Positions 27,180 to 61,876 of a stretch of 64,000 nt of DNA are shown here, one piece after another. The translations under genes and the position numbers were made by a program. Origin of the DNA: a bacterium (lineage in GTDB: Bacteria > Electryoneota > RPQS01). The first letter of the stretch is position 1. Each line of letters opens with the position of its first letter. The DNA is taken from NCBI GenBank assembly GCA_036504735.1, contig DASXUQ010000017.1:33349-97348 (forward strand), in the 5' to 3' direction. The notes under the pieces are model-generated. The model searched no databases and had not been told where the DNA came from. It worked only from the letters and a program-made list of their open reading frames with translations.

Positions 27180-27187
27180 GTGTGTTG

Positions 27188-30021: not shown

Positions 30022-30230
30022 AGCCGGATCGCGTGTCCACATCGACCATGTACACAACCCGGCCGAAACCCCGTGTCACTGCCTATTGTACATAAATTCA
30101 AATGACTGCGCACTTCTCCCTCGTGACTTCTACCGAATTTATCCGTAAATTATGGTCCGATCTGCAACTTTTCCCTCCGGAATCGCTCCTACTTGTAATA
30201 CCTTTTTCCCTAACACGTTCGAGGATGTGC

Positions 30231-45323: not shown

Positions 45324-45625
45324 GCGTACTTTTTCACGTGCCTTTCGGTCTTTTCCGGTGCAAAAATGCTCTACAAAAATCGTGCTAATGATTCTGACCA
45401 CAGCCTTTGCTTTTCAACGGCCCGGCGGCGGAGGCATGGTGCAGGAGCGTTGTCCGGTTTGTCTGCCGGGAATCCGCAGGTTGTCAAAAATCAGTGCCCA
45501 GCGGCTTTTAGCGGGTCATGTTGCCACGGGAAGTGACCCTTGATGGATGCCGAAAGTTGTGGCAAAGGGGTGCCTGTCGATAGTATATTGATGGATTACC
45601 TGCCGGCCCATCTTTGAGGACACCT

Positions 45626-48151
45626 ATGCGCCTGAATAACGTCATTTTCTGTATGATTCTGCTGGGGCTGATGCTCACCTTGGGCTCTGCCTCGGCTGTG
45701 CCCCGCCACAATAGTAGTCTGGTGGGAGCAGAATATTCGAAGATCGTTATCAAGTCGAAAGTAGATTTGCCGCAGATTGATGAAGTCGGCGGCATTATCG
45801 ATAATGTGGCGGGGGACACGGCCTGGGTCTACATCCGGCCCGACGCGGCGAAGATCCTGAAGGCGCGTGGCTTTGTAATCATCAAGGTGGAGCAGCCCCG
45901 GGGCGGGCGCAACACGCTGGACGATTATCACAATAATGATCAGATTCAGGCACAGTTCGACGCCTGGCAGACGCAGTATCCGACGCTGTTTTCTTATGAG
46001 TCCATCGGCACCAGCGCGGGCGGACGCAGCTTGTGGGTATGCAAGCTTTCCAATGGCATCGACAATGACAGCGGTAAAATTGAGGTCAAGTACATTGCCG
46101 CGATACATGGCGACGAGAGTGTGGGCACGGAAAACTGCCTGCGCTTTGCCGAGGAACTGCTGACCACTTATCAGACGGACTCGGCGCTGGGCGTGCTGAT
46201 GAACAATTATGACATCTACCTGCTGCCGCTGATGAATCCCGACGGCAACGCAGCCAGCCCGCAGACGCGCGGGAATGGGCACGGCGTGGACATGAATCGC
46301 GCCTTTCCCGACCGGATCGATGACTCCACCAATAGCACGGTAGGCCGCGAGCCGGAAATCGCCGCGGTAATGAACTGGACGGCACAGCACAATTTTATTT
46401 TGTCCGCCAATTTTCACGGTGGCGCCGTGGTGACGAACTATCCGTTCGATGGGAGCTACAGCGGGCAGAGCGTGAACACTCCCACGACCGAAGACGCGCT
46501 CTTACGCTACATTTCGCTGCGCTATTCCCAGTACAATACTCCCATGTATAACAGCACGGAGTTTGCGCAGGGGATCACCAACGGCTGCGCATGGTACAAT
46601 ATCAACGGCGGAATGCAGGACTGGAACTATGTGTGGATGGGCGACCGGGAAGTGACGATCGAACTCAGTACCATCAAGCATCCGGCGGTTTCGACACTCG
46701 AAGGGTTCTGGCAGGACAACCGTCTCTCCATGAGAAATTATCTGTTGGAGGCGCAGTACGGTGCGCGAGGGGTGGTGACCGACAGCGTGACCGGGCAGCC
46801 GCTGCGGGCCAATATCAGCTTGAACGGCTCCACCTATTTGACCTACAGCGCGGGCGCGCATGGCGAGTATTTCCGCATGTTGCGGCCTGGAACCTACACC
46901 TTGACGTTCTCCGCGCCGGGCTATGTGACCAAGACGTTCAACAACGTCACGGTGACCGGCAGCACACCGACGATGCTGAATGTGCAGCTTCTGTCCGCAC
47001 CGCGACCTGACATTGCGGTCGTGCCGGCGGCCATCAACAGCACCATCAATCCTTGCTCACAGCAGGACCTGCCCTTTGCCATCAGCAATACCGGAGAAGT
47101 CGCGCTCACATGGTCGGCGGCGGAAGCATATGAGAATCACACGGGCTACGGCAGTTCGACCGGCGGCGGATGGAGATTTGTGGACAGCGACCATGCCGGC
47201 GGTCCGACCTATTCCTGGGTGGACATTTCGGCCAGCGGCACGGCGGTGACCTTTGCCGGTGATGACCAGACGCTGGGACCGTTTCCGGTGGGCTTCACTT
47301 TTCCGTTCTATGGACAGAACTTCAGCACGTTCCGCCTGTGCTCCAATGGCTGGATCTCCTTCAGTTCGGCCTCTACGGCGTATGGGAATACATTTCTGCC
47401 GTCCAGTGCATCTCCCGAGAATCTGATTGCGGCATGGTGGGATGATTTGAGTCCGCAGCGCACGGGAACGGTGATTCGCCGCTGGACCAACAATGTAGAC
47501 AGCCTGGTGGTTTCGTTTGCCAATGTGCAGAGCTACAGCGGCAGCGGCGTGTACACGTTCGAGATGATTCTGTTGTCCTCGGGCAAGATTGTCCTCCAGT
47601 ACAACAGCATGGGCACGAACCGCTTGACCTCGGCGACCATCGGTTTGCAGAACAGCGACCGCACCAAGGGGACGACAGTGGTGCAGGACGCGGCGTATAT
47701 TCATAACAGCCTGGCGGTCTCCTTCTGCCCGAGTTCAATGGTGGCACTGGCGCCATCCTCCGGAACGGTGCAACCGCACAGTTCGGTGAATGTGGTGGCT
47801 CACCTGAATTCCTGCTGCGTGCCCAATGGAGCCAGTGGGGGCACACTGGCGATTGCTTCCAACGATCCGACGACGCCCGTGCTGAATGTGCCCGTAACGC
47901 TCACCGTGACGACGGTGCCGCCGGATGCCGTGGCGGACCTGACGGTTTATCCGGTTGGCGACAACTACCGTTTGGCGTGGAGCGCGTCTGTCAATGCGGC
48001 GGGGTACAAGGTATTTCGAATGGATGGCTTTGCACAGGATTATACCACGGGCGCACTGCTGACCGCCGTGCCGATTACGAACACCTTCTTTGTAGATTCC
48101 ACGGGCGGAGTGACCGCGACCACGTATTATCAGGTGGTGGCCGTGCAGTGA
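45626..48151 (+). CDS. secreted M14-family zinc carboxypeptidase with regulatory-like and additional beta-rich C-terminal domains
   Basis: AAIHGDESVG (HxxE) and SANFHGGAVVTNYPFD. The CarboxypepD_reg-like block is GVVTDSVTGQPL..GEYFRMLRPGTYTLTFSAPGY. Signal peptide; GAGGA precedes ATG 45626. Confidence 0.8.
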   Translation: MRLNNVIFCMILLGLMLTLGSASAVPRHNSSLVGAEYSKIVIKSKVDLPQIDEVGGIIDNVAGDTAWVYIRPDAAKILKARGFVIIKVEQPRGGRNTLDDYHNNDQIQAQFDAWQTQYPTLFSYESIGTSAGGRSLWVCKLSNGIDNDSGKIEVKYIAAIHGDESVGTENCLRFAEELLTTYQTDSALGVLMNNYDIYLLPLMNPDGNAASPQTRGNGHGVDMNRAFPDRIDDSTNSTVGREPEIAAVMNWTAQHNFILSANFHGGAVVTNYPFDGSYSGQSVNTPTTEDALLRYISLRYSQYNTPMYNSTEFAQGITNGCAWYNINGGMQDWNYVWMGDREVTIELSTIKHPAVSTLEGFWQDNRLSMRNYLLEAQYGARGVVTDSVTGQPLRANISLNGSTYLTYSAGAHGEYFRMLRPGTYTLTFSAPGYVTKTFNNVTVTGSTPTMLNVQLLSAPRPDIAVVPAAINSTINPCSQQDLPFAISNTGEVALTWSAAEAYENHTGYGSSTGGGWRFVDSDHAGGPTYSWVDISASGTAVTFAGDDQTLGPFPVGFTFPFYGQNFSTFRLCSNGWISFSSASTAYGNTFLPSSASPENLIAAWWDDLSPQRTGTVIRRWTNNVDSLVVSFANVQSYSGSGVYTFEMILLSSGKIVLQYNSMGTNRLTSATIGLQNSDRTKGTTVVQDAAYIHNSLAVSFCPSSMVALAPSSGTVQPHSSVNVVAHLNSCCVPNGASGGTLAIASNDPTTPVLNVPVTLTVTTVPPDAVADLTVYPVGDNYRLAWSASVNAAGYKVFRMDGFAQDYTTGALLTAVPITNTFFVDSTGGVTATTYYQVVAVQ

Positions 48152-48231: not shown

Positions 48232-48303
48232 GGCAAAGCCGATACGGGTGCAGGGCTTAGCCCTGCCGGCGAAGCCGATACAGGTGCAGGGCTTAGCCCT
48301 GCG
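48232..48303. repeat. two tandem 36-nt units each containing the hairpin GCAGGGC-TTA-GCCCTGC
   Basis: 33/36 identity between units. The second unit overlaps the stop codon of the 990-aa gene. Confidence 0.85.
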
Positions 48304-51265
48304 GTTTGAGGATTACGCCCTGGTTGCGGTGGCCGTTCATGCGCACCGTGAGGGGAGAGCCGAAATGCAGATGCCGGACGAAACTGGTTTCTTCGACGGC
48401 GGGCTGCTCCTTCAGCCATTGCCAATCGAGCAAACCGTCGCCGCTATCGGGATTGACGGTGAAATAACCGATGCGATAGGCGATGATGTTCTGAAAGAAA
48501 TGCGCGCCTTGCGAGGGCTCGACTTTGAAATCTTTGAAGCCGGATTCGATGATGATTTTTGCTCCGGAGAGTTGGTCCCACGAGGCGGGAATGCCCAGCC
48601 ACGGATCGGCACTCCCCCAGCGGCCCACGCCGATCAGCAGATACGGAATGTCCTTCTCCAGCAGCACGGCATTGAAATGCCCTACGTCGCGCGCGACGTC
48701 ATGGCTGCGGCTGCGGTCAAAGCTGTCGATGTCCACCACCACAATGTCCCGCAGATCATCGACTTTGCCGACGCCCAGCACGCGCGAACTGTGGCAGAGC
48801 AGAGTCTGCGGTTCGTGGTCGCCGATCTCCAGTTCCTCCAGTTCACGGCTGAGGACGAAGGGCCGTACCTGCAGGATGCCGAATTCCCGCGGAGTGTCGC
48901 GTGGCACAGAGAGATTGACGGCGAACTCGATCTCTACCGGGCCATTCATTCCCCACGTGCCCATCTCCAGAACCCGTGTGGCGATTTCCGGAAGCGGAAA
49001 GAGTTTGTGCTTGAGGATCGGTGCAAAGTTCACCAGACGCATGCCTTCCCGGCCAAGGCCATCGTGCATGGAATCATCTTCCACACAATATGTGGAGCCC
49101 ACGGCATGCAGCGTGCCATCCCGCTCGGCGGTATCCAGCGTGTACTGCTCCAGATCGATCTCCTGTGCGGGATCGTGGCTTTCGGTGCTGTCGCAGACCT
49201 TCAGAGCGTAAAAGGACTTTTGCGCGTATTCGAGCAGATCCTGCGTGGTGGAGAACTGCATCAGGTGGCGCGGATATTTGGGGCAGAAACGCATGGCGGA
49301 GCCGCCTTCGACGACGGTTTTGCCCAGACCGAGCGCCACCACCACGACGCCATCTTCAGAGGTGAGAGGTGGCGCGGGATAGAAGTTGTGGGAGCGCGCC
49401 ACGCCGGAGACATCGGGGTAGAAGCGGGAGCCATGACAGGCGCCCATGAGCTTCTGAATGATGACCGCCATCTTCTCTTCTTCGAGACGGTAGGGAGTGG
49501 AGCGGATGTAACGCCGCGCTGCCGGGGAAAAGGTAGAGGCATACACGCGCTTGATGGCGGCTGCGAGCTGCTCCAAACGTACATTGGAATCAGGATCGTT
49601 GTTGGGCAGCATGAAGGTACGGTAGACGCCGGCGAAGGGATGGAATTGCGAATCTTCGAGCAGGCTCGAGGAGCGAATCGCGAGCGGGTATTGCGCCACA
49701 TCGAGCAGCACCGCCAGTTCGGCCAGCAGGCCGGCGGGGAGGTTGGCCTCGAGGAAGCGGCGTTCGATATCTTCCTCTTCGAGCGCCGAGAGTGCGAATT
49801 CCCGCAGATGATTGTCATCGAGGAAGCGGTCGAAGATGTCGCTGCACAGTACGACACAGGGCGGTACCATGATGCGGATGTGGTCGAAGTTCTGGCCGAA
49901 ATCGTAGTGATGCAGCACATGATTGGCAAAGGCCAGTCCGCGCGCCTTGCCGCCCAGAGAGCCGCTGCCGATGCGGGCAAAGCCGTCCGCAGGATCGAAG
50001 ACTTCCCGGCTGAAATCCGATACGTGCCCCCGCGCGCGTTCGATGCGGAAGTTGCCTATCGACTGAACCAGATCGTTGCGCAGGTCTTCAAGGGTCGGAT
50101 AGTCGGAAACCTTGCGCGGCTTAAGCATGTCGGCGAGTTCGAATTCGGTGCGCGCCTTCAGCCAGTTGGAGAAGTGATCGCGTTCGGCATGGTAGCGGAT
50201 GCTAAGCGCGTCCACGGTGCGGAGTTTCTGCTCCAGTTCCCGCATGTCCCGGGCACGGGCGACCTCCCGCCCATCGGGCAGATGGAAGACGAAATCCCCG
50301 AAGCCGAAGGCGACTTCCATGAAGTGCCGCAGATCGAGCAGTAAGGTAGGCGAGGATTTGAGCGCGAACTGCACGCCAAGCTTGCCGGCCAGCGCGGCCG
50401 TGTTCGGATTGGATGATTGGAGCAGGACTGGAATATCGGGCCGCCGCGCTTTAAGCCGCTGTACGAATTCCGCTCCGGCTTCGGGGTTGAGCTTGCCATC
50501 TTTGGGAAATTCCACATCGGAGATGACGCCGAGCACGGAGTGCTCATAGCGGGAATAGTAGTCCCACGCCTCTTCGAAGTGATCGCAAAGCAGAATCTTG
50601 GGCCGTGCGCGCATGCGCAGCAGCTTGTGGTAAAGGTTGACACTTTCGGAAATCAGGCTCTGCGAGTGCCGCATCAGCTCCGTGTAGGCCATGGGCAGAT
50701 AGGAGGAGTAGAAGCGGATGTTGTCCTCGATGAGGAGAATCGTTTGCACGCCCATCATCGACGCATCATGCTCGACATTCCAGCGGTCTTCGATGTATTT
50801 GACGATGGCGAGCAGAATTCGAAAATCTCCCTGCCAGATGAAGACGCGTTCAAGCAGCGGTTCCGTGCGGATGCGCAGCAGCTCGCGAAACTCGCGGTTG
50901 TCGAAGGCCAGCAGCACTACCGGCATGCCCGGCCGCAGGTCCCGCATGGCGCGCACGAAGTCCAGCACGGGCAGATCCCCGAGATGCATGGTGGTGATCA
51001 CCAGATCGAAGCACGGATTTTCGGCGGCCAGTTGCAGCGCCTGTGAGGCATGGGAAACGCGGGTGAGATTGGGCTCGCGGCTGAGGTTCAGCTCCATGAA
51101 CTCGGTGGTGAGCTGCTCGTGAAGCTGCCCGTCCTGCGCAAGGAGGAAGGAATCATAGAGGCTGGACACGACGAGAATCTCCTGCACACGGAGGCGCATG
51201 AGATTCTGAAAATCGGTGGTGCGGTTCTGGGAACCGAGCGGTGGAAAACGGTCAAGATCGGTCAT
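48293..51265 (-). CDS. receiver-domain / PPDK_N (PEP/pyruvate-binding ATP-grasp) domain protein, 990 aa
   Basis: Two receiver-like domains: the second has ILLIEDN and GVISDVEFP, and the first looks degenerate. Also GSLGGKARGLAF, AIRSSSLLEDS, KMAVIIQ, and the C-terminal GVGRWGS..SQGAHFFQN module. Confidence 0.75.
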   Translation of the reverse strand: MTDLDRFPPLGSQNRTTDFQNLMRLRVQEILVVSSLYDSFLLAQDGQLHEQLTTEFMELNLSREPNLTRVSHASQALQLAAENPCFDLVITTMHLGDLPVLDFVRAMRDLRPGMPVVLLAFDNREFRELLRIRTEPLLERVFIWQGDFRILLAIVKYIEDRWNVEHDASMMGVQTILLIEDNIRFYSSYLPMAYTELMRHSQSLISESVNLYHKLLRMRARPKILLCDHFEEAWDYYSRYEHSVLGVISDVEFPKDGKLNPEAGAEFVQRLKARRPDIPVLLQSSNPNTAALAGKLGVQFALKSSPTLLLDLRHFMEVAFGFGDFVFHLPDGREVARARDMRELEQKLRTVDALSIRYHAERDHFSNWLKARTEFELADMLKPRKVSDYPTLEDLRNDLVQSIGNFRIERARGHVSDFSREVFDPADGFARIGSGSLGGKARGLAFANHVLHHYDFGQNFDHIRIMVPPCVVLCSDIFDRFLDDNHLREFALSALEEEDIERRFLEANLPAGLLAELAVLLDVAQYPLAIRSSSLLEDSQFHPFAGVYRTFMLPNNDPDSNVRLEQLAAAIKRVYASTFSPAARRYIRSTPYRLEEEKMAVIIQKLMGACHGSRFYPDVSGVARSHNFYPAPPLTSEDGVVVVALGLGKTVVEGGSAMRFCPKYPRHLMQFSTTQDLLEYAQKSFYALKVCDSTESHDPAQEIDLEQYTLDTAERDGTLHAVGSTYCVEDDSMHDGLGREGMRLVNFAPILKHKLFPLPEIATRVLEMGTWGMNGPVEIEFAVNLSVPRDTPREFGILQVRPFVLSRELEELEIGDHEPQTLLCHSSRVLGVGKVDDLRDIVVVDIDSFDRSRSHDVARDVGHFNAVLLEKDIPYLLIGVGRWGSADPWLGIPASWDQLSGAKIIIESGFKDFKVEPSQGAHFFQNIIAYRIGYFTVNPDSGDGLLDWQWLKEQPAVEETSFVRHLHFGSPLTVRMNGHRNQGVILKPQG

Positions 51266-51307
51266 GGGGGAAAAGGTGTTGTTCCGCTAACCCTGTGCAT
51301 ACACCAC

Positions 51308-51333
51308 GGCGCGGAGGGTTGCCCCTCCGCGCC
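51308..51333 (-). other. 11-bp GC hairpin between gdhA and the 990-aa gene
   Basis: ggcgcggaggg-ttgc-ccctccgcgcc. No T-run follows. Confidence 0.5.
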
Positions 51334-51359
51334 GCTCGCACTGACCCGTCAGCATACAA

Positions 51360-52769
<1,410 letters not shown>

Positions 52770-52859
52770 CTACTCCTTGCTTCTGGTGTTAACTTATCTT
52801 AACGACAAGCAAAAAAACACAGAGATCAGACTGCCGTCTGAATAAGGCGTCCCGCTTTT

Positions 52860-53056
52860 GGGGTCACTTCCGTCGCCCGCCAGCAGTCCGTAGAGTAGCC
52901 GTTTCCGGGGTCATATTCCGTCGCCCGTTACGGCAGATAGAAATCTATCGAGAGATTCTACTGTCCGTGAGGAGGGAGGGGCTTCCGCAGTCGGGGTCTT
53001 TTCCGTCGCCCTTTGCGGTCAGCAATTTTGCGCCGACGGGGTCTTTTCCGTCGCCC
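52860..53056. repeat. four direct copies of a ~19-20-nt motif GGGGTC(N3-4)TTCCGTCGCCC
   Basis: Copies at 52860-52878, 52907-52926, 52993-53011 and 53038-53056. The last two are identical. Confidence 0.8.
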
Positions 53057-53363
53057 GGTGCACAAATGGTAGGGTCCGTGGGTTAGGCTGCTACTGAACA
53101 CTCCTTCTGATTGGGCGGCGCGGAGGCATAATCCTCTAAGATTCTGCCGGTTGCCGCAGGTGATACGCATTGTGAAAAAATGCGCATTTGGTGTAAAAAC
53201 AGAAACTAAGTCTGCCGCTACGGCGAGCGTAATCGGCCCTGATGCGGCAGTTTAGCTTGACAGTACAATATGCGAAATATAAGGTAACTTGTCAAGTGAT
53301 AAAACTATATCGTCCATAGGGAGTCATGATAAACTCAGTTCACGAAAAGCAAAGACGAATCTT

Positions 53364-53379
53364 CGGCACGGCACTTGCA
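53364..53379 (+). promoter_or_regulatory. sigma54-type promoter candidate
   Basis: cGGCACGgcacTTGCA matches TGGCACG-N4-TTGCW with correct GG-N10-GC spacing. It lies about 63 nt upstream of GTG 53442. Confidence 0.5.
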
Positions 53380-53441
53380 ATATTGCGGGACAATGCGTTT
53401 ATTAACAAGTACAACGCACATTTGATGGGCATAGCATAAGT

Positions 53442-54305
53442 GTGATCAACTCATTCTTCACGTCGGATCTGCATGGCCACCCGCATCGCTATGAAAAACT
53501 CATCGCGGCTATCGAGCACGAGACGCCCAAGGCGGTCTTTCTGGGAGGCGATTTGCTGCCGCATCATCTGGCATCGCCCGCTTCGAGAGGCATTGTAGAT
53601 CAGGACTTTATTGTCGACTATCTGGTGCCGCTGTTTGCCGAACTGCGGGGGCGACTCGGTGAAGCGTATCCGGCGGTGTTTGTGATTCTCGGCAATGATG
53701 ATCCGGGCTTTGAAGAAGAGATGATGCTGGCCGGGGAAGAGGCCGGGTTGTGGAATTACGTCCATAACCGCTGCTATGAACTTGAAGGCTTCCCGGTTTA
53801 CGGCTATGCCTTTGTGCCGCCGACGCCGTTTCTGCTGAAGGACTGGGAGCGGTATGATGTGTCGCGGTATGTGGAGCCCGGATCGGTTTCACCCGAAGAA
53901 GGAATCCGCACAGTGGCCGTTTCGGACACGGAGAAGAGATACGGCACCATCTGGAGTGATCTGGCGGCGCTGGCCGGCGAGAGCGATCTTTCCCGCGCGG
54001 TATTTCTGTTTCATTCACCGCCGCACGACACGCCGCTGGACAGAGCCGCACTGGACGGCAGAAAGGTGGACTATGTGTCCATGGACGTCCACGTGGGCAG
54101 CATCGCGATTCGCCGCTTCATCGAAGAGCGCCAGCCGCTGCTGACTCTGCACGGGCATATTCACGAATCGGCGCGGCTGACGGGATCGTGGCGCGAGCGG
54201 ATCGGCACCACGCTCTGCTTCGGCGGTGCACATGACGGGCCGGAGTTGCCGCTCATCCGGTTTGATCTGGAGAATCCGGAAGGGGCGACACGGGAACTGC
54301 TTTAG
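53442..54305 (+). CDS. calcineurin-like metallophosphoesterase
   Basis: FFTSDLHGH near the N-terminus, GGDLLPH, LGNDD, FHSPP and HGHIHE motifs. Confidence 0.7.
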   Translation: MINSFFTSDLHGHPHRYEKLIAAIEHETPKAVFLGGDLLPHHLASPASRGIVDQDFIVDYLVPLFAELRGRLGEAYPAVFVILGNDDPGFEEEMMLAGEEAGLWNYVHNRCYELEGFPVYGYAFVPPTPFLLKDWERYDVSRYVEPGSVSPEEGIRTVAVSDTEKRYGTIWSDLAALAGESDLSRAVFLFHSPPHDTPLDRAALDGRKVDYVSMDVHVGSIAIRRFIEERQPLLTLHGHIHESARLTGSWRERIGTTLCFGGAHDGPELPLIRFDLENPEGATRELL

Positions 54306-54323
54306 CGCCCGGCTTGCCGGGCG
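54306..54323. terminator. short palindromic hairpin between convergent genes
   Basis: cgcccggc-tt-gccgggcg. Confidence 0.45.
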
Positions 54324-54328
54324 ACGTT

Positions 54329-55012
54329 CTATTCGCCCACCACAAGCCGCAGAGTGTCGCGTCCCGGTACACCGCGGCTGTCGCAGACGCTGGCCCAGAC
54401 GAGGTTCTCGCCGGAGTGACGGAAGGTATAGCTGACGCGATAGAGCCAACGACTCATATAATAGAGCGTGGTGTCAAACCCCGCATAAAAGATATAGCCA
54501 TTCCCTTCGCCGGCGAAGGTGAAGGTGGAGTCCACCATGCCGTATGGACCGGGGTACGTGTCCACCATCAGCGTGCATGGCAGCAGGGCGCGGACCGAAG
54601 CGGATTGCACCTGTATCCGTAAGTCCGGCGGCGGGTCAAGGCGGGCTCCGATGGTGATTTCATGGGTTGCAATCTGTGGTTCGGACATGCCATCGCCGAT
54701 CCGCGCCGTTACGAAATAGGATCCGGTCTCATAGAAGCAGTGGGGCAGCGAAAAGGTGCGGGGGCGCAGTTCCGGGAGCGAGGTGTCCACATGCCCGGCG
54801 TCCTCGAAACAGATTTCGAACAGACGCACGGGATTTGTTCCATTGGTGACAGTGAAGGTGAAACTCACGGAATCGTCGGGATAGGCGAGGTCAGGTCCTG
54901 AGATCTCTACCGTGGAGGGAGTCGCGTCCATACGTCCGCGATGATCGGCGCAACCATAAAGTATACTCATCGCCAGCAGCAGCAGTCCGGTGAACGTCCA
55001 TCGATTACGCAT
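54329..55012 (-). CDS. lipoprotein with two Ig/PKD-like beta domains (hypothetical)
   Basis: MRNRWTFTGLLLLAMSILYGC lipobox. ATG 55012 is preferred over the 55117 ORF start. Confidence 0.55.
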   Translation of the reverse strand: MRNRWTFTGLLLLAMSILYGCADHRGRMDATPSTVEISGPDLAYPDDSVSFTFTVTNGTNPVRLFEICFEDAGHVDTSLPELRPRTFSLPHCFYETGSYFVTARIGDGMSEPQIATHEITIGARLDPPPDLRIQVQSASVRALLPCTLMVDTYPGPYGMVDSTFTFAGEGNGYIFYAGFDTTLYYMSRWLYRVSYTFRHSGENLVWASVCDSRGVPGRDTLRLVVGE

Positions 55013-55113
55013 TTTTACATTTCCTGTGTGTGCAAAGTTCACGGGGCCACACCCCAAATGGTCGTGATGCAAGCGGGACCGATACGGATCCGGTTCCGGT
55101 CTTCCTTCATCCC

Positions 55114-55135
55114 TCATCCTTCCGCCTTCATCCTT
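55114..55135. repeat. 22-nt element TCATCCTTCCGCCTTCATCCTT (copy 1)
   Basis: Identical to 60180-60201. It encodes the last residues and the stop of the 1063-aa gene on the minus strand. Confidence 0.85.
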
Positions 55136-58100
55136 CTCTTCAGGGGCAGAGGCCGGGCGGCATCGGTGACGGCGCCGATTTTGGCGGCAAAGGGGCCGCG
55201 GGCGGCAATGTCCTGGTCGGTGACGATGTGGGCGTCGAGCAGTTTGCCGCTGCGGTATCCGGTGCGCAGGTAGTTCATCTCATCGAGGCAGAGGCTCCAG
55301 CCTTCCAGCCATTCTTCCAGCATCTGCCGCTGGCAATCATCACCCGCAAAATGTACCAACAGATCAATGTCACTGCCGGGTCCGGCGGTGGCATTTTTTG
55401 CGCTGCCGAAGACATACAGGGCCTTGACGCCGAAGCGGTCCGCGTCGAGGTGCTCGGCAATCTTCTCGGCCATCTGCAATCTCCAGCGCCAGTGCTCTTC
55501 GGCGGGCTGTTCCGAAGCTGGCGGCATGTAGCCGCTGCGCGATTCGACCGTGGCGGCGGGGCGCGCCAGAATGCCCACGGCCTGCTCCAGATCGGCGTTC
55601 ATCAGAATGCGCAGGATGCGTCCATTGGCGACTTTCGGCACATCGATCACGCGGATGATCGGTGCCAGGTCCGCGTATTCGGGAGCCAGATCGGCCAGCA
55701 TGTTCGGCGAGCCGCTCAAGAACTCCTCGTTGAACACCACGTCCGGATCATCCGGGTAGAGCGGCAGATAGCGGATGGAAGATTCCACCAGATCCTGAAA
55801 GAAATGAGTGCCGAAGGAGAGGTCGGGAATGTAATTTCCCTGTTGGCGCGCGATTTCGATCAGCATTGCGGTGTTGGAAATATCCGAATAGGTGACACTG
55901 ACGCCGAGCTTGACATCGCCGCGGCTGCCCCAACGGCCCGGGCCCATCAGCACGAACTGGCGTTTGGGAAGAGTCTTGTTCAGAAATCCGACGGCGCGCC
56001 CGACGGCGGTCAGTGTAGCCAGGTCGCGGATCTCGCTGTAACGCTGTGGGTCGACGTAGACAAGGTGAGTGATGTCGGGAGTCTTGCCGTTGGAAACATA
56101 GCGATTCGCCGAGAAGATCATGCTCTGGGGTGGAATGTCGGTGGGGATCACCGCCGGAACGGCATCCTCGCTGTAGCTTTGCGGGCGGCACTGCAGCAGA
56201 TAAAAATCCTTGCCGTCGTGGGCGAATTCGATGTCCACCGGAGTGCCGAGTTTGGCTTCAAGCGCCCGGAGGATGGTTTGCATCTGCTTGATGAACGGCG
56301 TGCGGGAGATCAAGCCGTCAAAGGTCACTACACACTCATCGCGCCGGGGATTGAAATACAATCCTGTCGGAACCTGCAGCGTGTGCTCCTTGTAAATGGA
56401 TACGAGCTGATTCAGCCAGGGAATTTCGTGACCGTATTCGCGGACGAAGCGGCGGACGTCCACGGTCTCGAAGGAGTTGGTCTCGAGATTGATGACGTCC
56501 ATCTTGTTGGGCGAATAGCGCACCACCTCTTCGGGAGAGACATTGACTTGCAGGCCGGGCTGTCCGGGGGCAATGAGCACCGGGTAATCATCGCTGAGGC
56601 GGTCGACCGCACGCGTGCCGAGACCCGGCACCATGCGAATCAGGCCATCCTTGCGGCGGATGCGCGGCGACCAGCGGAACTCATTATTGCTGAAGGCGAC
56701 GCCCGCAAAGGCCGGCAGAAAATACTTGCCGATCTGAGTGCCGACCACCTCTTGAATCATGATACCCATTTCTTCGCGGTAGTCGAGCAGGCCGCGCTCA
56801 GCGCGGTACTGAATGGGATCGGGACCGAAGGTAGATGAGTAAACCTCGGCGATGGCGTCCATCAGGGCATCGAGCCGCTCGCGCTTGGTGCCCTGATTGG
56901 CGAGAAAGAGGCTCTTATACTTGCCGGAGAATGCGCTGCCGAAGCGGTCTTCGAGCAGGGAGGAGCTGCGGACAATCAGCGGACGGTTGCCGAAATCATC
57001 CAGCGCCATGGAAAGCCCTTGAACGATCTCCGGCGTGAAGGTGGAATGCTTGAAGACCTGCACGATCTGGCTGTACTCGCGGCGGATCTCATCGATCTCT
57101 TTGTACTTGTGCTCGACCAGTTCCTCGAGATTATTGTAGGTGACAAAGCTCAGGAGCGTGTCGGAGGTGATGTACCACGTCTTGGGGGTGCGGATCTCGC
57201 GGAGAATTTCGGCGTCCTGGCTGATCTTGCGGATAATGCGCGAGGCCAGAAACAGTCCGGCGCTCTTGCCGCCGAGCTTGCCGTGGCTGCCGGCGGGGAA
57301 GACCAGCCGCTGCAGCAGCTCATAGAAATCCCCGACGTCCACAAACTGCTTGGCGACATTGATGTATTCGAGCTGATCGGTGAAAAAGCGGCGGATGAGG
57401 GAGACGCGCACCTCCTTCTCGGTGGTGTCGGAGAGTTCGATGCCTTCCGAGGAGAGGGCGGTGAAGCGGCGGATGGCGTCGGAAATTTCCGTGAGGGACG
57501 TGCCGAAGCTTTCGAGGGCGGTAATGAGGAAGTTGGACTTGTCTTCCTGAATCCATTTCTGAATCCAGGAGAGAATCTCCGGATCGCTGTAGTATACAGA
57601 GGCAATGTCGAAGACTTCCTCATTCAGCCGCGCCGACATGTCCAGGGTTTTGCGCATGGGACGGTTCTCATCGGGCGCCTTGCCGTCGTTGCCCCGTTCT
57701 TCCACCAATCGCTCCTGCAAAGCCTGCGCCTCGCGGATGCCGCTGGAACAGAGCCGCACGAACATCTTGCGGGAGATGCGGCGGTAGAGGTTCTGATCGG
57801 TGCGCCGCAGCAGATCCGCCACCACGCGCCACTCTTCCTTGCGGCTGTGCGAGAGGTTCTCCTTGGCGGATTCCCAGTCCTTCTTGACTTGCCGCAGCGT
57901 CAGGTACTGGATGAAGTGCCCGATGCGGTCGGCGATGGTGGCAATGAGCTTGGCCTCCTCTTTCAGGAACGGCCCGATGTCCGCCGTGGGCATCTCCCGC
58001 GTGTAGTAGACCTCCACGCTGCCGACAATAGTGTCCTGCAGAGAAATATCGGAGCATTGTCTCCACGGCGTTGGCTGGAAATTGACCGGCGCGTAGACGG

Positions 58101-58305
58101 AATCGTTGCAGATGATCCGCGTCTGACAGACATCCGGGTACTGCCAGCCGGGTGGAATCGCGCGGATGATCCCTTCGAAGACCGCGTGCACGTCGGCCTC
58201 GGGATCGGTGAGCAGTTCCTCGATTTTGTACAGGCAGTTCAGCTCCTTGGCCCGCTCCTGCAGCGCCCAGAGCAGTTTGTCAATCGGCCTCGTCTGGTCA
58301 CTCAT
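55114..58305 (-). CDS. sensor-like domain / PPDK_N ATP-grasp / Pol-beta-type nucleotidyltransferase fusion protein, 1063 aa
   Basis: N-terminal LQERAKELNCLYKIEEL sensor-type motif. Also GKLGGKSAGLFLA, IVRSSSLLEDRFG, GPGRWGS..SFGTHFFQD, and the C-terminal YVFGSAKNATAGPGSDIDLLV NTase motif. Confidence 0.75.
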   Translation of the reverse strand: MSDQTRPIDKLLWALQERAKELNCLYKIEELLTDPEADVHAVFEGIIRAIPPGWQYPDVCQTRIICNDSVYAPVNFQPTPWRQCSDISLQDTIVGSVEVYYTREMPTADIGPFLKEEAKLIATIADRIGHFIQYLTLRQVKKDWESAKENLSHSRKEEWRVVADLLRRTDQNLYRRISRKMFVRLCSSGIREAQALQERLVEERGNDGKAPDENRPMRKTLDMSARLNEEVFDIASVYYSDPEILSWIQKWIQEDKSNFLITALESFGTSLTEISDAIRRFTALSSEGIELSDTTEKEVRVSLIRRFFTDQLEYINVAKQFVDVGDFYELLQRLVFPAGSHGKLGGKSAGLFLASRIIRKISQDAEILREIRTPKTWYITSDTLLSFVTYNNLEELVEHKYKEIDEIRREYSQIVQVFKHSTFTPEIVQGLSMALDDFGNRPLIVRSSSLLEDRFGSAFSGKYKSLFLANQGTKRERLDALMDAIAEVYSSTFGPDPIQYRAERGLLDYREEMGIMIQEVVGTQIGKYFLPAFAGVAFSNNEFRWSPRIRRKDGLIRMVPGLGTRAVDRLSDDYPVLIAPGQPGLQVNVSPEEVVRYSPNKMDVINLETNSFETVDVRRFVREYGHEIPWLNQLVSIYKEHTLQVPTGLYFNPRRDECVVTFDGLISRTPFIKQMQTILRALEAKLGTPVDIEFAHDGKDFYLLQCRPQSYSEDAVPAVIPTDIPPQSMIFSANRYVSNGKTPDITHLVYVDPQRYSEIRDLATLTAVGRAVGFLNKTLPKRQFVLMGPGRWGSRGDVKLGVSVTYSDISNTAMLIEIARQQGNYIPDLSFGTHFFQDLVESSIRYLPLYPDDPDVVFNEEFLSGSPNMLADLAPEYADLAPIIRVIDVPKVANGRILRILMNADLEQAVGILARPAATVESRSGYMPPASEQPAEEHWRWRLQMAEKIAEHLDADRFGVKALYVFGSAKNATAGPGSDIDLLVHFAGDDCQRQMLEEWLEGWSLCLDEMNYLRTGYRSGKLLDAHIVTDQDIAARGPFAAKIGAVTDAARPLPLKRRMKAEG

Positions 58306-60055
58306 GATAGATCACTCCCCGTCCGCTTCGACCGTCTACAACGATGCGCAAGGGTTTCTCCAGATGCACGTGCCTGACGAACGGTGTTTGGGCCACCGTA
58401 TGCTGCTGATCCAGCCAATCCCAATCCACGTGATACATGCCGTCATGCCGCACGGCAAAATAGCTCACCTGAAAGCTCGAAAGATTGTGGAAGAAGTGGG
58501 AGCCCTGACTCAGGTCCACATTCATCTCCGGCAGAGTGGCTTCCACAATCGCTTTGGCTGCGGAAATATCGCTCCAGTTCACAGGGATCCCCAGCCACGG
58601 ATCGCTGCTTCCCCAGCGACCGAAGCCGACTAAGAGATAGGGACGTTTAGCGTCAACAAGGGCGCGATTCATAGTGGCGATCTGTGCGGCAACCTGACGG
58701 GTGTGACGGGCTTCAAAGACCTCGGGCCGCACGTAGATGACGTCGCACAGGGTGTTGACCGTGCCGTTGCCAAGCACCGTGGAGGAGGCGGCGAGAACAT
58801 TGGGGCCTTCCAGGTTCTCTTCCTCCAGATCCACCTGCTCATGGGAGACCATCATGGGCCGCACCTGTAGAAAACCGAAACGCGGCGGCACCCGGCGGCG
58901 GGAATCGAGCGTCATGGCGAACTCGATCTCGACGGGCGCGCCGATGGCCTCTTCGCAGCGCTTCAGCAGGCGCTTCAGCAGATTGTTCAGTGGCACTTCG
59001 TTCAAGTCGAGAATCGGCGCAAAATCGAGCACACGCGGGCCATCCACGCCCGTGCCGGGGGAGAGACGGTCGGAGGCGGCGTCATAGGTGGAGGCCACAA
59101 AGCGCAGCGCGTCGTCTTCCTCGGCTTCCCGCAGTCCGGGTTGCAGCATGTATTCGGTTTCTTTGATCGGGTCGAAGGCCGGCGGCTTGCCCATATTCAC
59201 GGCCCAGAATTCCGACTGCGTGAGCTTGACCATATCCCGCGCGGAGGCGAACGGCGGCCGGGTGCGGGGAAAGGCGGGAGAATAGGTCCAGACCACGCCG
59301 CCGTCGACGATGGTTTTGCCGAGGCCCAAAGCCAGATCCACCACGCCCTGTTCCGGTTTGGCGTGTCCCTGCGGATAAAAGTTGTAGGAGCGCGCGACAC
59401 CGGAAAGGTTGGGATAGAATCGCTCCCCGTAGCGCTGGCCGACGACTTCCTGAATGATCACCGCCATCTTTTCGCTCTGGATGGACTGCTCGGTGCTGCG
59501 GATGTAGGCCTTAGCTTCCTGAAAGAAGGTGGACGCCCACACGAATTTCACCGCTTCCACCAATCGGCGGAACCGGGCATCGGGATCAAACGGGTTATTG
59601 GGAATCATTTTGGTGGCGTACACCCCGGCGAAGGGATGATAGAGCGCGTCTTCGAGCAGACTGGAGGAACGCACGGCCAGCGGCTGATGCACTTTGCGGA
59701 TGAGGGCCATCAGGTCGCCGACGAATTCCGAGGGGAAATCGGCCTTCTGAAAGGCATGGGCGATGCGGTCATCAGGAGCGTCCGAGAGAGCAACCTCATA
59801 GAGCCGGTTGCGGGACATGAAGGCGTCGAACACGTCTGTCGTGACCACCGTAAGGCGCGGGATGTTGATCAGCAAGTCGCCGAAGTCATCGGCACTGAAC
59901 CCGCTGGAGAGCAGAGCGCGCGCGAACGCCAGCCCGCTGGCTTTGCCGCCGAATTCTCCCGATCCGATGTAAGTGAAGTCCTCACTCGAATCGAAGAACT
60001 CGCGCTGAAACCGCGCGGCGTGATGTGGGGTGGAAAATTTGCGTTGCTCAGGCAT
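58298..60055 (-). CDS. PPDK_N (PEP/pyruvate-binding ATP-grasp) domain protein, 585 aa
   Basis: GEFGGKASGLAFA, AVRSSSLLEDA, KMAVIIQ and GFGRWGS..SQGSHFFHN. ATG 60055 is preferred. The stop overlaps the start of the 1063-aa gene by 8 nt. Confidence 0.75.
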   Translation of the reverse strand: MPEQRKFSTPHHAARFQREFFDSSEDFTYIGSGEFGGKASGLAFARALLSSGFSADDFGDLLINIPRLTVVTTDVFDAFMSRNRLYEVALSDAPDDRIAHAFQKADFPSEFVGDLMALIRKVHQPLAVRSSSLLEDALYHPFAGVYATKMIPNNPFDPDARFRRLVEAVKFVWASTFFQEAKAYIRSTEQSIQSEKMAVIIQEVVGQRYGERFYPNLSGVARSYNFYPQGHAKPEQGVVDLALGLGKTIVDGGVVWTYSPAFPRTRPPFASARDMVKLTQSEFWAVNMGKPPAFDPIKETEYMLQPGLREAEEDDALRFVASTYDAASDRLSPGTGVDGPRVLDFAPILDLNEVPLNNLLKRLLKRCEEAIGAPVEIEFAMTLDSRRRVPPRFGFLQVRPMMVSHEQVDLEEENLEGPNVLAASSTVLGNGTVNTLCDVIYVRPEVFEARHTRQVAAQIATMNRALVDAKRPYLLVGFGRWGSSDPWLGIPVNWSDISAAKAIVEATLPEMNVDLSQGSHFFHNLSSFQVSYFAVRHDGMYHVDWDWLDQQHTVAQTPFVRHVHLEKPLRIVVDGRSGRGVIYHE

Positions 60056-60065
60056 TCGAATCACC

Positions 60066-60153
60066 GAAGGAAGAAGGAAGACGGAACAAGGATGAAGGAA
60101 GAAGGAAGACGGAACAAGGATGAAGGAAGAAGGATGAAGGATGAAGGATGAAG
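60066..60153. repeat. purine-rich tandem repeat: 28-nt unit x2.5 followed by GAAGGAT x3
   Basis: gaaggaagaaggaagacggaacaaggat at 60066-60093 and 60094-60121, then gaaggaagaaggat gaaggat gaaggat gaag. Confidence 0.9.
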
Positions 60154-60179
60154 TGAAGAATGAGATCACCTCTCATCCT

Positions 60180-60201
60180 TCATCCTTCCGCCTTCATCCT
60201 T
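60180..60201. repeat. 22-nt element TCATCCTTCCGCCTTCATCCTT (copy 2)
   Basis: Identical to 55114-55135. It is complementary in register to the adjacent purine repeat. Confidence 0.85.
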
Positions 60202-60204
60202 GCC

Positions 60205-61491
60205 TTACACCCATCCTCTATCTTTGCAGGCTTGCGCGACGCGGCTGACGGCAATCACATACGCGGCGTCGCGCATGTAGAGTTTGCGTTCGCGGGCCAG
60301 TTCACTGACGGCGATGAAGGCGCTGGTCATGGCGACGTCGAGCTTGCCCAGCACTTCATCCTTTTCCCAGTAATAGTTCATGTTGGACTGCACCTGCTCG
60401 AAGTAGGAGCAGGTCACACCGCCGGCGTTGGCCAGAAAATCGGGGATGAGGAAGATGCCACGCTGCTTGATGATCTCATCGGCCTCGGGAGTGGTAGGTC
60501 CGTTGGCGCCTTCGGCAATCAGACGCACGCGCTTGCCGATCTTGCCGACGTTTTCGGTGGTGATCTGGTTTTCGATGGCGCCGGGAATCAGAATGTCCAC
60601 GTCCTGCTCCAGCCAGGCATCGCCGCCGAGGACTTCATAGCCCAGTGCGCGTGCCTGCTCTTTTTCGATACCGCCGAAACGGTCGGTGATGTCGAGCAGT
60701 TGATCAAGGTCAATGCCGCCGGCCTTGCGGAAGGAGTAGGAGGTCTGATCCTTCTGATCCCAGCAGGACACACAGATGACCTTGCCACCAATCTGCTGCA
60801 ACAGGCGGATCGCGTACTGCGAAACATTGCCGAAGCCCTGCACACTGGTTTGGGTTTCCTCGGGCCGCATGCCCAATTCTTTCAGCGCCTCGCGAATAGT
60901 GAAGACGACGCCGAAGCCGGTGGCCTCGGTGCGGCCCAGCGAGCCGCCCATGCCCACGGGTTTGCCGGTGATGAAGCCCGGGAAATGCCCGCCGTGAATG
61001 TGCTCATACTCATCGAGCATCCAGAGCATGTGCTGCGCGTTGGTCATGATGTCCGGCGCGGGCACGTCGGCCAATGGTCCCACCACCTTGGCAAGCTGCC
61101 GCACCCAGCCGCGACAGATGCGTTCCTGTTCGTGCGGGGTCAGGTTGTGCGGATCGCAGATGACGCCGCCTTTGCTGCCGCCGAGGGGAATGTCCACAAC
61201 CGAGCATTTCCACGTCATCCACATCGCCAAGGCGCGCACGGTGTCAATGGTCTCCTGCGGGTGAAAGCGGATGCCGCCTTTTCCCGGGCCGCGCGCATCA
61301 TTGTGCTGGACACGGAAACCGCGAAAGATGCGCATGGTGCCGTCATCCATCCGCACGGGAATGGTAAAATGGTATTCGCGCAGCGGCTGACGGAGCATTT
61401 CCCGCGTGGCGCTGTCCAGCGAGAGAAGATCCGCCACCCTATCGAATTGCGTTTGAGCCATTTCAAACGGATTGAAAGCACTGCTGCTCAT
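60205..61491 (-). CDS. glutamate dehydrogenase, short (~420-aa) Glu/Leu/Phe/Val dehydrogenase class
   Basis: GPGKGGIRFHP, PLGGSKGGVICDP and QGFGNVSQYA. ATG 61491 (MSSSAFNPFEMAQ) is preferred. Confidence 0.85.
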   Translation of the reverse strand: MSSSAFNPFEMAQTQFDRVADLLSLDSATREMLRQPLREYHFTIPVRMDDGTMRIFRGFRVQHNDARGPGKGGIRFHPQETIDTVRALAMWMTWKCSVVDIPLGGSKGGVICDPHNLTPHEQERICRGWVRQLAKVVGPLADVPAPDIMTNAQHMLWMLDEYEHIHGGHFPGFITGKPVGMGGSLGRTEATGFGVVFTIREALKELGMRPEETQTSVQGFGNVSQYAIRLLQQIGGKVICVSCWDQKDQTSYSFRKAGGIDLDQLLDITDRFGGIEKEQARALGYEVLGGDAWLEQDVDILIPGAIENQITTENVGKIGKRVRLIAEGANGPTTPEADEIIKQRGIFLIPDFLANAGGVTCSYFEQVQSNMNYYWEKDEVLGKLDVAMTSAFIAVSELARERKLYMRDAAYVIAVSRVAQACKDRGWV

Positions 61492-61571
61492 AGGGCACCT
61501 TCTGTATGTGTGGGAAGGGGAAAATGCTGAAAGGCTGATAGAAAAAGAAGAGGCTACGGGATGGGAGATAG

Positions 61572-61612
61572 AAAGCCGGGTCTGCACTCAAAGAGGAGCA
61601 CGACCCGGCTTT
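61572..61612 (-). other. 11-bp stem hairpin with 19-nt loop between the Cys-rich gene and gdh
   Basis: aaagccgggtc ... gacccggcttt. Confidence 0.45.
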
Positions 61613-61618
61613 TACGAT

Positions 61619-61876
61619 CTACCGAAAATCCGCGCAGCGCCAGACGCCGCTTTCGGGACGCACCCGGGTGCAAACGCTTTCGGCGTCGCACTGCGGACAC
61701 AATCCCATGTCCGTGACCTCATGCCATTGCAAAGATTCGTGCACGGTTCGGGAGGGCGCATAGGCGTAGCCTTCGAACTGCGCGCAGTCCATCACGGCGG
61801 CGCCGTGATGATTCGAACATTGCGGCCCGTACTTGCAGGAAACACAGATGCCGCGAATCACCATCGCTTTCGACAT
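61619..61876 (-). CDS. 85-aa Cys-rich protein with duplicated CxxC-x5-C-x10/11-C motif (hypothetical)
   Basis: AAGGAGG lies 7 nt upstream of the ATG. The two halves are ICVSCKYGPQCSNHHGAAVMDCAQF and LCPQCDAESVCTRVRPESGVWRCADF. Confidence 0.6.
   Translation of the reverse strand: MSKAMVIRGICVSCKYGPQCSNHHGAAVMDCAQFEGYAYAPSRTVHESLQWHEVTDMGLCPQCDAESVCTRVRPESGVWRCADFR

Follow-up and report, generated by a model that had tools for sequence, protein, structure and literature searches.

Two GDH genes paired with PPDK_N genes

Why would two glutamate dehydrogenase (GDH) genes of different classes each be accompanied by genes for ATP-grasp proteins of the PPDK_N family? The question is raised by a 64,000-nucleotide (nt) stretch of DNA from a bacterium of the phylum Electryoneota (contig DASXUQ010000017.1; the whole stretch is called the window and positions are counted from its first letter). 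Module 1 consists of GDH1, a GdhA-type enzyme of the NADP-specific class (468 amino acids (aa), positions 51360 to 52766, minus strand), and a 990-aa receiver-like/PPDK_N protein (48293 to 51265, minus strand). Module 2 starts with GDH2, a 428-aa enzyme of the ~420-aa hexameric class (60205 to 61491, minus strand). It is followed by a 585-aa protein made of PPDK_N and a C-terminal His domain without a sensor domain (58298 to 60055, minus strand) and by a 1063-aa GAF-like/PPDK_N/nucleotidyltransferase protein (55114 to 58305, minus strand), whose gene overlaps the 585-aa gene by 8 nt. The open reading frames (ORFs), coordinates and motifs listed in the initial annotation of this DNA were recovered unchanged, and its 94-nt spacer (module 1), 149-nt spacer (module 2) and 8-nt overlap are exact. 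Hundreds of species, spread over about ten bacterial phyla, have the GDH/PPDK_N pairing.

Conservation of the gene pairs

For module 2, GTDB species, each represented by a single genome, were searched with an alignment of 585-aa homologs. Relatives are encoded in at least 576 species, and the analysis used the 80 best loci. Neighbors were counted by tblastn of all window proteins against the loci, with approximate gene starts. The locus sets are phylogenetically related and the counts are descriptive, not independent trials. Of the 68 loci with room for it, 66 have a GDH2-type gene as the immediate upstream neighbor of the 585-aa gene (64 on the same strand and two divergent), and a gene of the 1063-aa type is directly downstream in 56 of 59. 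Homologs of a calcineurin-like metallophosphoesterase, encoded in the window at 53442 to 54305 on the plus strand (287 aa; Pfam Metallophos, E = 2.6e-09), were found in 42 of 57 loci, no more than 6.5 kb downstream and mostly in convergent orientation to the 1063-aa gene. This gene, missed by the initial annotation, belongs to the GDH2 cluster as its fourth conserved gene. The loci were found in Acidobacteriota (including Aminicenantes), Ignavibacteriota/Bacteroidota (including a metagenome-assembled genome of Melioribacter roseus), Calditrichota, Planctomycetota, Zixibacteria, Gemmatimonadota, Krumholzibacteriota and Eisenbacteria. The genes outside the module 2 block differ between loci. One cluster (L165, GCA_030622545.1) does without the 585-aa gene and is composed of GDH2, a 1065-aa GAF-like/PPDK_N/nucleotidyltransferase gene and the metallophosphoesterase.

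The search also works in reverse: when GDH2-clade genes were picked by GDH similarity alone, PPDK_N genes were found directly downstream in 4 of 4 cases. In some lineages the 585-aa and 1063-aa proteins are fused into one polypeptide of ~1630 to 1655 aa with two copies of the C-terminal domain (P0145-P0155, P0182 and P0241-P0243, one of them labeled Ignavibacteriae), which is Rosetta-stone evidence that the two act jointly.

For module 1, an alignment of 990-aa orthologs was searched against metagenomes, which gave at least 586 matches, and again the best 80 were kept. In 33 of the 54 loci with room for it, the immediate upstream neighbor is a GdhA-type gene on the same strand, and a gdh gene is present elsewhere in the flank in seven further loci. 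No recurrent neighbor was found in the 990-type loci without gdh (MFS transporter, transglutaminase, macroglobulin, HypC-like protein, PIN protein and others). Because these neighbors are mutually unrelated, GDH is the sole recurrent partner. Both modules are side by side, as in the window, in L055, L056, L076, L083, L119 and L143. Divergent paralogs (~25% identity) are also found beside gdh (L031, L038 and L044).

Our own estimate of chance adjacency to gdh is ~0.1%, given one or two gdh genes in a genome of several thousand genes. It was concluded that the GDH/PPDK_N association is far beyond chance, with shared ancestry allowed for. Enrichment across genomes had been set beforehand in the initial annotation as the refutation test of a functional coupling, and the forward and reverse counts above both show it. 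The pairing is also subfamily-specific, i.e., the 990-aa type goes with GDH1 and the 585-aa and 1063-aa types go with GDH2. This fits better with specificity at the protein level than with a shared small-molecule substrate.

The PPDK_N proteins and their C-terminal domain

Domains were called by Pfam and NCBIfam profile searches of the window proteins. PPDK_N (PF01326) is present in the 990-aa (E = 7.5e-34), 1063-aa (E = 6.6e-61) and 585-aa (E = 6.9e-36) proteins. The 585-aa protein shares 43% identity with the core of the 990-aa protein over 573 residues and is essentially its catalytic core; it shows 27% identity to the 1063-aa protein. With their common motifs, the three are paralogs, as initially proposed. 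The ATP-grasp motifs GGK, RSSSLLED, V(E/D)IEFA and LQxRP are invariant across all three families in ortholog alignments. Judged from these residues, each paralog has a complete ATP-grasp active site of the type found in PPDK, PEP synthase (PEPS) and rifampin phosphotransferase (RPH). Pfam detected neither the PF00391 swivel domain nor the PF02896 PEP/pyruvate barrel in any of the three. The nearest NCBIfam models are PEP synthase, PigC, RedH and Rph, and the PEPS models match only over their first ~200 positions, far below their cutoffs (e.g., 61 bits vs 883). Of the profiles expected in the initial annotation, PF01326, the GDH domains and NTP_transf_2 were thus detected, PF00391 is absent and PF00072 is weak.

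The 585-aa family has more than 8000 homologs. Those listed are ~570 to 610 aa long with ~60% identity across phyla, and their database names are only "PEP/pyruvate-binding domain-containing protein" or "hypothetical protein". The 1063-aa family is likewise conserved (~60% identity). An AlphaFold2 model of the 585-aa protein has a predicted local distance difference test score (pLDDT) of 86, and its best Foldseek matches are RPH (E = 5.6e-14), HpeI (E = 5.6e-11), PEP synthase and PPDK. The model of the 1063-aa protein is of moderate quality (pLDDT 66), and the domain assignments made from it are tentative. It matched the RPH ATP-grasp domain (E = 2e-08), MntA/MNT and, weakly at the N terminus, PDE5/phytochrome GAF domains.

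The 990-aa protein is composed of a degenerate receiver-like module (residues ~27 to 150), a second receiver-like module (~173 to 305), a short helical linker (336 to 404, with a weak DUF5752 match), PPDK_N (436 to 808) and the C-terminal His domain (~820 to 990), as seen in Pfam and a five-ortholog alignment. Both N-terminal modules had been annotated as receivers. The first one scores 29.5 bits with Response_reg, below the 30.2 cutoff, and its aligned acceptor position appears not to be Asp. The second has no Pfam match and only sub-significant similarity to RssB and Spo0F (E = 0.04 to 0.16). What speaks for the receiver assignment is residue conservation: E180, D181, D250, S284, K303 and H922 are invariant in the window protein and five orthologs, and all of these but H922 are the expected acidic-pocket, Asp, Ser and Lys positions of the second module.

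In the 1063-aa protein, a GAF-like N-terminal domain is followed by a long helical region, PPDK_N (residues 343 to 716), the C-terminal His domain and an MNT-type nucleotidyltransferase (Pfam and Foldseek). NTP_transf_2 was detected at residues 956 to 990 with the motif G967-S968 ... D979-x-D981, and by these residues the terminal domain looks active. The initial annotation had drawn a cautious analogy to the GlnE/GlnD control of glutamine synthetase. At the domain level this is loose, as only NTP_transf_2, Polbeta and MntA-type matches and no GlnE/GlnD domain were found with Pfam, NCBIfam and Foldseek; the domain is a minimal MNT/MntA-like nucleotidyltransferase.

All three paralogs share a C-terminal domain of ~170 aa with invariant N, G-x-G-R-W-G, D, E, S-x-G-x-H-F-F and Y. 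The two motifs read GVGRWGS and SQGAHFF in the 990-aa protein, GPGRWGS and SFGTHFF in the 1063-aa protein, and GFGRWGS and SQGSHFF in the 585-aa protein, where the invariant His is H520. A search of 1.84 billion representatives gave 2267 clusters (50% identity) with this domain, and among full-length matches it forms the C-terminal end of proteins of ~585, ~990, ~1060 and ~1640 aa. Attempts to relate it to the swivel domain gave no match: PDB and Pfam searches gave only chance matches to longin domains, the sole alignment to the RPH swivel domain scored -3.5 bits, and no canonical GGxTSH swivel motif was found in 2.3 Mb of related loci. In the 585-aa protein, 66 residues separate the invariant His from the C terminus, compared with ~50 at most in RPH-type dikinases. 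AlphaFold2 predicted the C-terminal domain of this protein well on the whole and with least confidence at the His loop, which is consistent with a mobile catalytic loop. RPH and HpeHI shuttle phosphate via a His on a C-terminal swivel domain with the motif T/S-x-x-G-G-x-x-x-H (PMC12167813). By analogy to these enzymes, a phospho-His relay through the C-terminal domain is plausible.

The partner glutamate dehydrogenases

GDH1 has the ELFV_dehydrog_N and ELFV_dehydrog domains in Pfam and passed the NADP-GDH model NF006929 (758 bits, cutoff 536). Its closest solved structures are 5gud/5ijz (E = 6e-177). GDH2 also has both GDH domains; it scores 480 bits, below the NCBIfam equivalog cutoff of 750, and its closest solved match is the Thermococcus/Pyrococcus GDH (1euz, E = 1e-125). 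Both enzymes have what defines the ELFV family, i.e., two ELFV domains and the catalytic GG(G/S/A)KGG Lys motif. As they are only 33% identical, a recent duplication can be discounted, in agreement with the initial view that the two belong to different classes and did not arise by simple duplication. By its sequence GDH1 is an ordinary GdhA without a conserved extension.

The GDH2 proteins linked to PPDK_N cluster tightly in one clade; nearly all have 428 aa, and identity across phyla is ~80%. Two insertions mark this clade, WDQxDQxSY (residues 243 to 254, positions ~60730 to 60765) and KAxxLGY (residues 279 to 285, ~60637 to 60657). W244 of the first insertion is present in all 76 sequences. 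Neither insertion occurs in the Thermococcus GDH sequence (PDB 1EUZ) or in a third GDH type of related loci. The first one starts right after VCVS, which is aligned with VVAVS of 1EUZ. We take the VCVS segment to be strand betaB of the dinucleotide-binding fold, which in this enzyme family is followed by the loop that touches the adenosine ribose of NAD(P). In this reading of the alignment, the insertions would sit near the coenzyme adenosine-ribose loop. They may represent a docking or coenzyme loop marker and are no proof of a modification site. The Ser beside the catalytic Lys (GGSKGG) was rejected as a modification site since this position varies among G, A and S.

The third GDH type shows 45 to 47% identity to GDH2, lacks the insertions and is encoded directly downstream of 990-type genes (L086, L087, L088, L094, L095, L103, L122 and L152). 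In L086-L088, L094 and L095, tandem 990-type genes are located between GDH1 and the third GDH, in the order GDH1, REC-PPDK_N, GDH3.

Spacers between gdh and PPDK_N genes

The 94-nt spacer between the gdhA stop codon and the 990-aa gene contains a G+C hairpin (51307 to 51334, minus strand). Its stem is 12 bp, one more than the 11 bp first reported. The spacer folds with -47.7 kcal/mol (z = -3.4), and no T-run follows the hairpin in the window. Across genomes, the gdhA-to-990 spacers mostly have a strong hairpin, often with a T-run (median z = -3.7, and 74% below -2, calculated with mononucleotide shuffles). Despite the kept gene order, module 1 is probably transcribed as separate units or with attenuated read-through.

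The 149-nt spacer between GDH2 and the 585-aa gene (60056 to 60204, minus strand) is filled with 7-nt purine/pyrimidine repeats. A long hairpin is found right after the GDH2 stop codon (-62.8 kcal/mol, z = -7.1). The array itself (60066 to 60201) is (GAAGGAA)n with a 28-nt super-repeat, and its opposed halves pair as the hairpin. The equivalent spacers elsewhere are shorter and unrelated in sequence. If read through, the array would encode SSFILHPSSF repeats.

Possible functions of the GDH/PPDK_N pairs

GDH stands at the junction of carbon and nitrogen metabolism. We tentatively favor, at somewhat less than even confidence, the reading that both modules are forms of a single, so far undescribed system, in which a GDH is controlled post-translationally by dedicated, signal-gated ATP-grasp phosphotransferases. 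This GDH control is preferred because of the class-specific pairing, the signal-input domains, the nucleotidyltransferase (of a type that has a protein-AMPylating antitoxin among its solved relatives), the phosphoesterase, the 585/1063 fusion and the hairpins. Fusion to receivers is typical of signaling outputs and not of pathway enzymes. In the proposed mechanism, the invariant His of the C-terminal domain would be phosphorylated or pyrophosphorylated from grasp-bound ATP. What then passes to the partner GDH, or to a GDH-bound site, would be the phosphoryl group, a nucleoside monophosphate from the nucleotidyltransferase, or both, and this would switch the activity or coenzyme use of the GDH. 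The metallophosphoesterase could act as the eraser of this mark. Timing would be set by the receiver-like modules (histidine-kinase input) and the GAF-like domain (a metabolite, perhaps 2-oxoglutarate). A plausible outcome is that the assimilatory NADP-GDH1 and the catabolic GDH2 are kept from running simultaneously. The strong hairpins after each gdh gene may hold the expression of the regulator low relative to the enzyme. A more specific version, in which the dikinase-type ATP-grasp family serves as a protein-directed modifier, the MNT domain as a second writer and the metallophosphoesterase as the eraser of a signal-gated covalent GDH switch, is in our estimation unlikely.

Several observations weigh against post-translational control of GDH. 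All characterized PPDK_N enzymes, phenylphosphate synthase, glucan water dikinase and PigC among them, act on small molecules or glucans, and none is known to modify a protein. The same is documented for PEP synthase, PPDK, RPH and HpeHI (PMC12167813). The C-terminal domain has no Pfam match (E up to 10) and no PDB sequence match, PF00391 included; the phospho-His relay is therefore an assumption. No acceptor residue stands out in either GDH: the GDH2 insertions have no invariant Ser, Thr or Tyr (S251 in 56 of 76 sequences, Y252 in 68 of 76), and the Ser/Thr-rich N-terminal tail of GDH1 was rejected as a modification site since the tail is not conserved. A fusion to GDH was not seen among the 150 matches listed. 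About 40% of the 990-type genes are not beside gdh, and the terminator-like hairpins in most genomes make strict co-transcription of module 1 doubtful.

In the strongest rival explanation, the PPDK_N proteins work at the GDH node as small-molecule dikinases or phosphotransferases, and GDH is a pathway neighbor and not the target. The substrate could be a 2-oxoglutarate or glutamate derivative or a nicotinamide cofactor, for example; the metallophosphoesterase would hydrolyze the product and the sensors would tune the flux. We consider this somewhat unlikely. The activities of all characterized relatives agree with it, as do the top Foldseek matches (RPH, HpeI, PEPS and PPDK), the nearest NCBIfam models (PEP synthase, PigC, RedH and Rph) and the intact ATP-grasp catalytic residues. 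The proteins nevertheless lack the PF02896 barrel and show no match to an RPH/HpeH substrate-binding domain beyond the grasp domain, while the invariant polar set of the C-terminal domain (N, R, D, E, S, H and Y) does resemble an active site. Pathway genes typically show the kind of tight, operon-like spacing seen with GDH2, but no further pathway enzyme is conserved in the cluster, and a receiver fused to a pathway enzyme would be unusual. Each subfamily also keeps to one GDH class though both GDHs share their substrates, and this is where control of GDH itself accounts better for the data.

The other two rivals were given less weight. The PPDK_N proteins may be signaling enzymes for nitrogen or carbon status with another output (a nucleotide messenger or other targets), gdh being merely co-regulated. 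The GAF-like and receiver-like input modules would suit this role, and a nucleotidyltransferase with a phosphodiesterase-type enzyme is the usual writer/eraser layout; the metallophosphoesterase is faintly similar to MPPED2. The 990-type genes away from gdh point in the same direction. We nevertheless hold it to be quite improbable: the gdh link is near-universal for the 585/1063 pair in both search directions, the 990-aa type is gdh-linked even without a nucleotidyltransferase, no effector or receptor gene is conserved nearby, and MNT-type domains are no known messenger synthases. It is hardly credible that there is no functional coupling at all and that a horizontally spread cassette keeps its gene order by inheritance. 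The unusually high conservation across phyla (~80% for GDH2, ~60% for the 585-aa and 1063-aa proteins) does suggest lateral spread of the block, and the terminator-like hairpins between gdhA and the 990-type gene are compatible with independent units. Yet the link was kept or has arisen in at least three paralog subfamilies and two GDH classes, in varied orders and orientations, with flanking genes otherwise unrelated between loci, and the 585-1063 fusions and GDH2 clade loops argue for selection on the combination.

Comparison with known systems

The ATP-grasp domain has its best sequence and fold match in RPH, HpeHI, CreHI and the phenylphosphate synthase PpsAB. These systems resemble the window proteins in having a grasp domain followed by a C-terminal domain with a conserved His, and in being paired polypeptides that are sometimes fused. 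The window proteins differ in lacking PF00391, the T/S-x-x-G-G-x-x-x-H motif and the RPH/HpeH substrate-binding domain; they have S-x-G-x-H-F-F after G-R-W-G-S instead. They also carry attached sensor domains and a nucleotidyltransferase, and their partner is GDH and not an aromatic or antibiotic pathway. PEP synthase and PPDK share PF01326 with its GGK, the Arg of the RSS motif, D/E-x-E-F and L-Q-x-R, but two of their three defining features (PF00391 and PF02896) are missing here. Within the dikinase ATP-grasp superfamily, the proteins form an uncharacterized branch. New in it are the C-terminal domain, the architectures and the partner enzyme, which is strongly conserved. No description of the GDH/PPDK_N association or of the C-terminal domain was found in the searchable literature, in agreement with the initial remark that no described system of this kind was known.

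As dedicated ATP-using, signal-responsive modifiers, GlnE/GlnD (for glutamine synthetase) and AceK (for isocitrate dehydrogenase) are functional analogs only; there is no sequence relationship, and the nucleotidyltransferase here is the minimal MNT type. In aceBAK, the regulator is expressed at a lower level because of secondary structure between its gene and that of the enzyme, and hairpins also follow the gdh genes here. The nucleotidyltransferase domain at the C-terminal end of the 1063-aa protein resembles MntA/MNT and aminoglycoside nucleotidyltransferases in its fold and in G-S ... D-x-D. Solved MNT-HEPN complexes among the Foldseek matches include a mono-AMPylated HEPN toxin. Unlike in HEPN-MNT pairs, the domain here is fused to a 900-aa sensor/ATP-grasp protein in a housekeeping context, and no HEPN partner was found in Pfam/NCBIfam profile scans of the cluster and neighboring genes. 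A HEPN-MNT toxin-antitoxin or defense function was rejected, as PADLOC gave only weak domain-level matches (PDC-S09/PDC-S10) and no HEPN family. The GDH of Thermus thermophilus, of the ~420-aa class, is reportedly regulated via a homolog of adenine phosphoribosyltransferase. It is thus a likeness as a GDH with an accessory protein, but that accessory family is unrelated, and no ATP-grasp or nucleotidyltransferase is involved there.

To our knowledge, bacterial GDH has no described enzyme dedicated to its modification, in contrast to glutamine synthetase or isocitrate dehydrogenase. The pairing suggests that a central enzyme of nitrogen metabolism has a control or partner system not described so far, in phyla that are environmentally dominant and mostly uncultured. 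Whichever reading holds, there is a new family-specific domain and a new activity in the PPDK_N superfamily. The pairing also offers a handle on the switching between ammonium assimilation and amino-acid deamination in peptide-degrading soil and sediment bacteria. If the proteins were modifiers of GDH, this would be a categorically new regulatory system. If the switch were covalent, GDH would have an equivalent of the adenylylation cascade that acts on glutamine synthetase, and this equivalent would be widespread in Acidobacteriota, the FCB group and Planctomycetota. A new domain would carry the phosphohistidine, and the clade-specific loop in the coenzyme domain of GDH2 would be a possible target.

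Other features of the window

The gdhA gene is preceded by a 675-nt intergenic region with a promoter-like site (53295 to 53267). Four direct copies of a 20-nt core, GGGCGACGGAA(N2-3)GACCCC, are found in this leader at 52850 to 53063 (minus strand), spaced by 45, 85 and 48 nt. The flanks of the repeats are not conserved. The repeats are lineage-specific and absent upstream of GDH1 in the other loci. No known Rfam family was detected in the window, including the gdhA leader and the spacers. A known riboswitch was rejected as the identity of the repeats, since they have no Rfam match and no significant fold. The repeats may serve as operators or be bound, as RNA, by a protein.

Two ORFs of the region, one of 85 aa and Cys-rich (61619 to 61876, minus strand) and one of 262 aa (54329 to 55117, minus strand), have no family or domain match in Pfam and NCBIfam and no counterpart in 160 related loci (tblastn). 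The Cys-rich ORF had been placed in module 2 in the initial annotation. It was rejected as a member because it is not kept beside the cluster elsewhere, so that the module loses this ORF and gains the metallophosphoesterase. The 262-aa ORF is probably no member either, as it is not conserved. It is lineage-specific, starts 4 nt before the stop codon of the 1063-aa gene and separates this gene from the metallophosphoesterase, which in other genomes directly abuts the 1063-aa gene.

The surroundings of the modules within the window also contain a GatB_N-domain gene and a NiFe-hydrogenase fragment. Many likely secreted peptidases and immunoglobulin-like proteins are encoded at 27182 to 48151, among them an M16 peptidase (30102 to 32945), an M14 carboxypeptidase (45614 to 48151) and CarboxypepD_reg-domain proteins. 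These peptidase-rich surroundings fit a peptide-degrading lifestyle.

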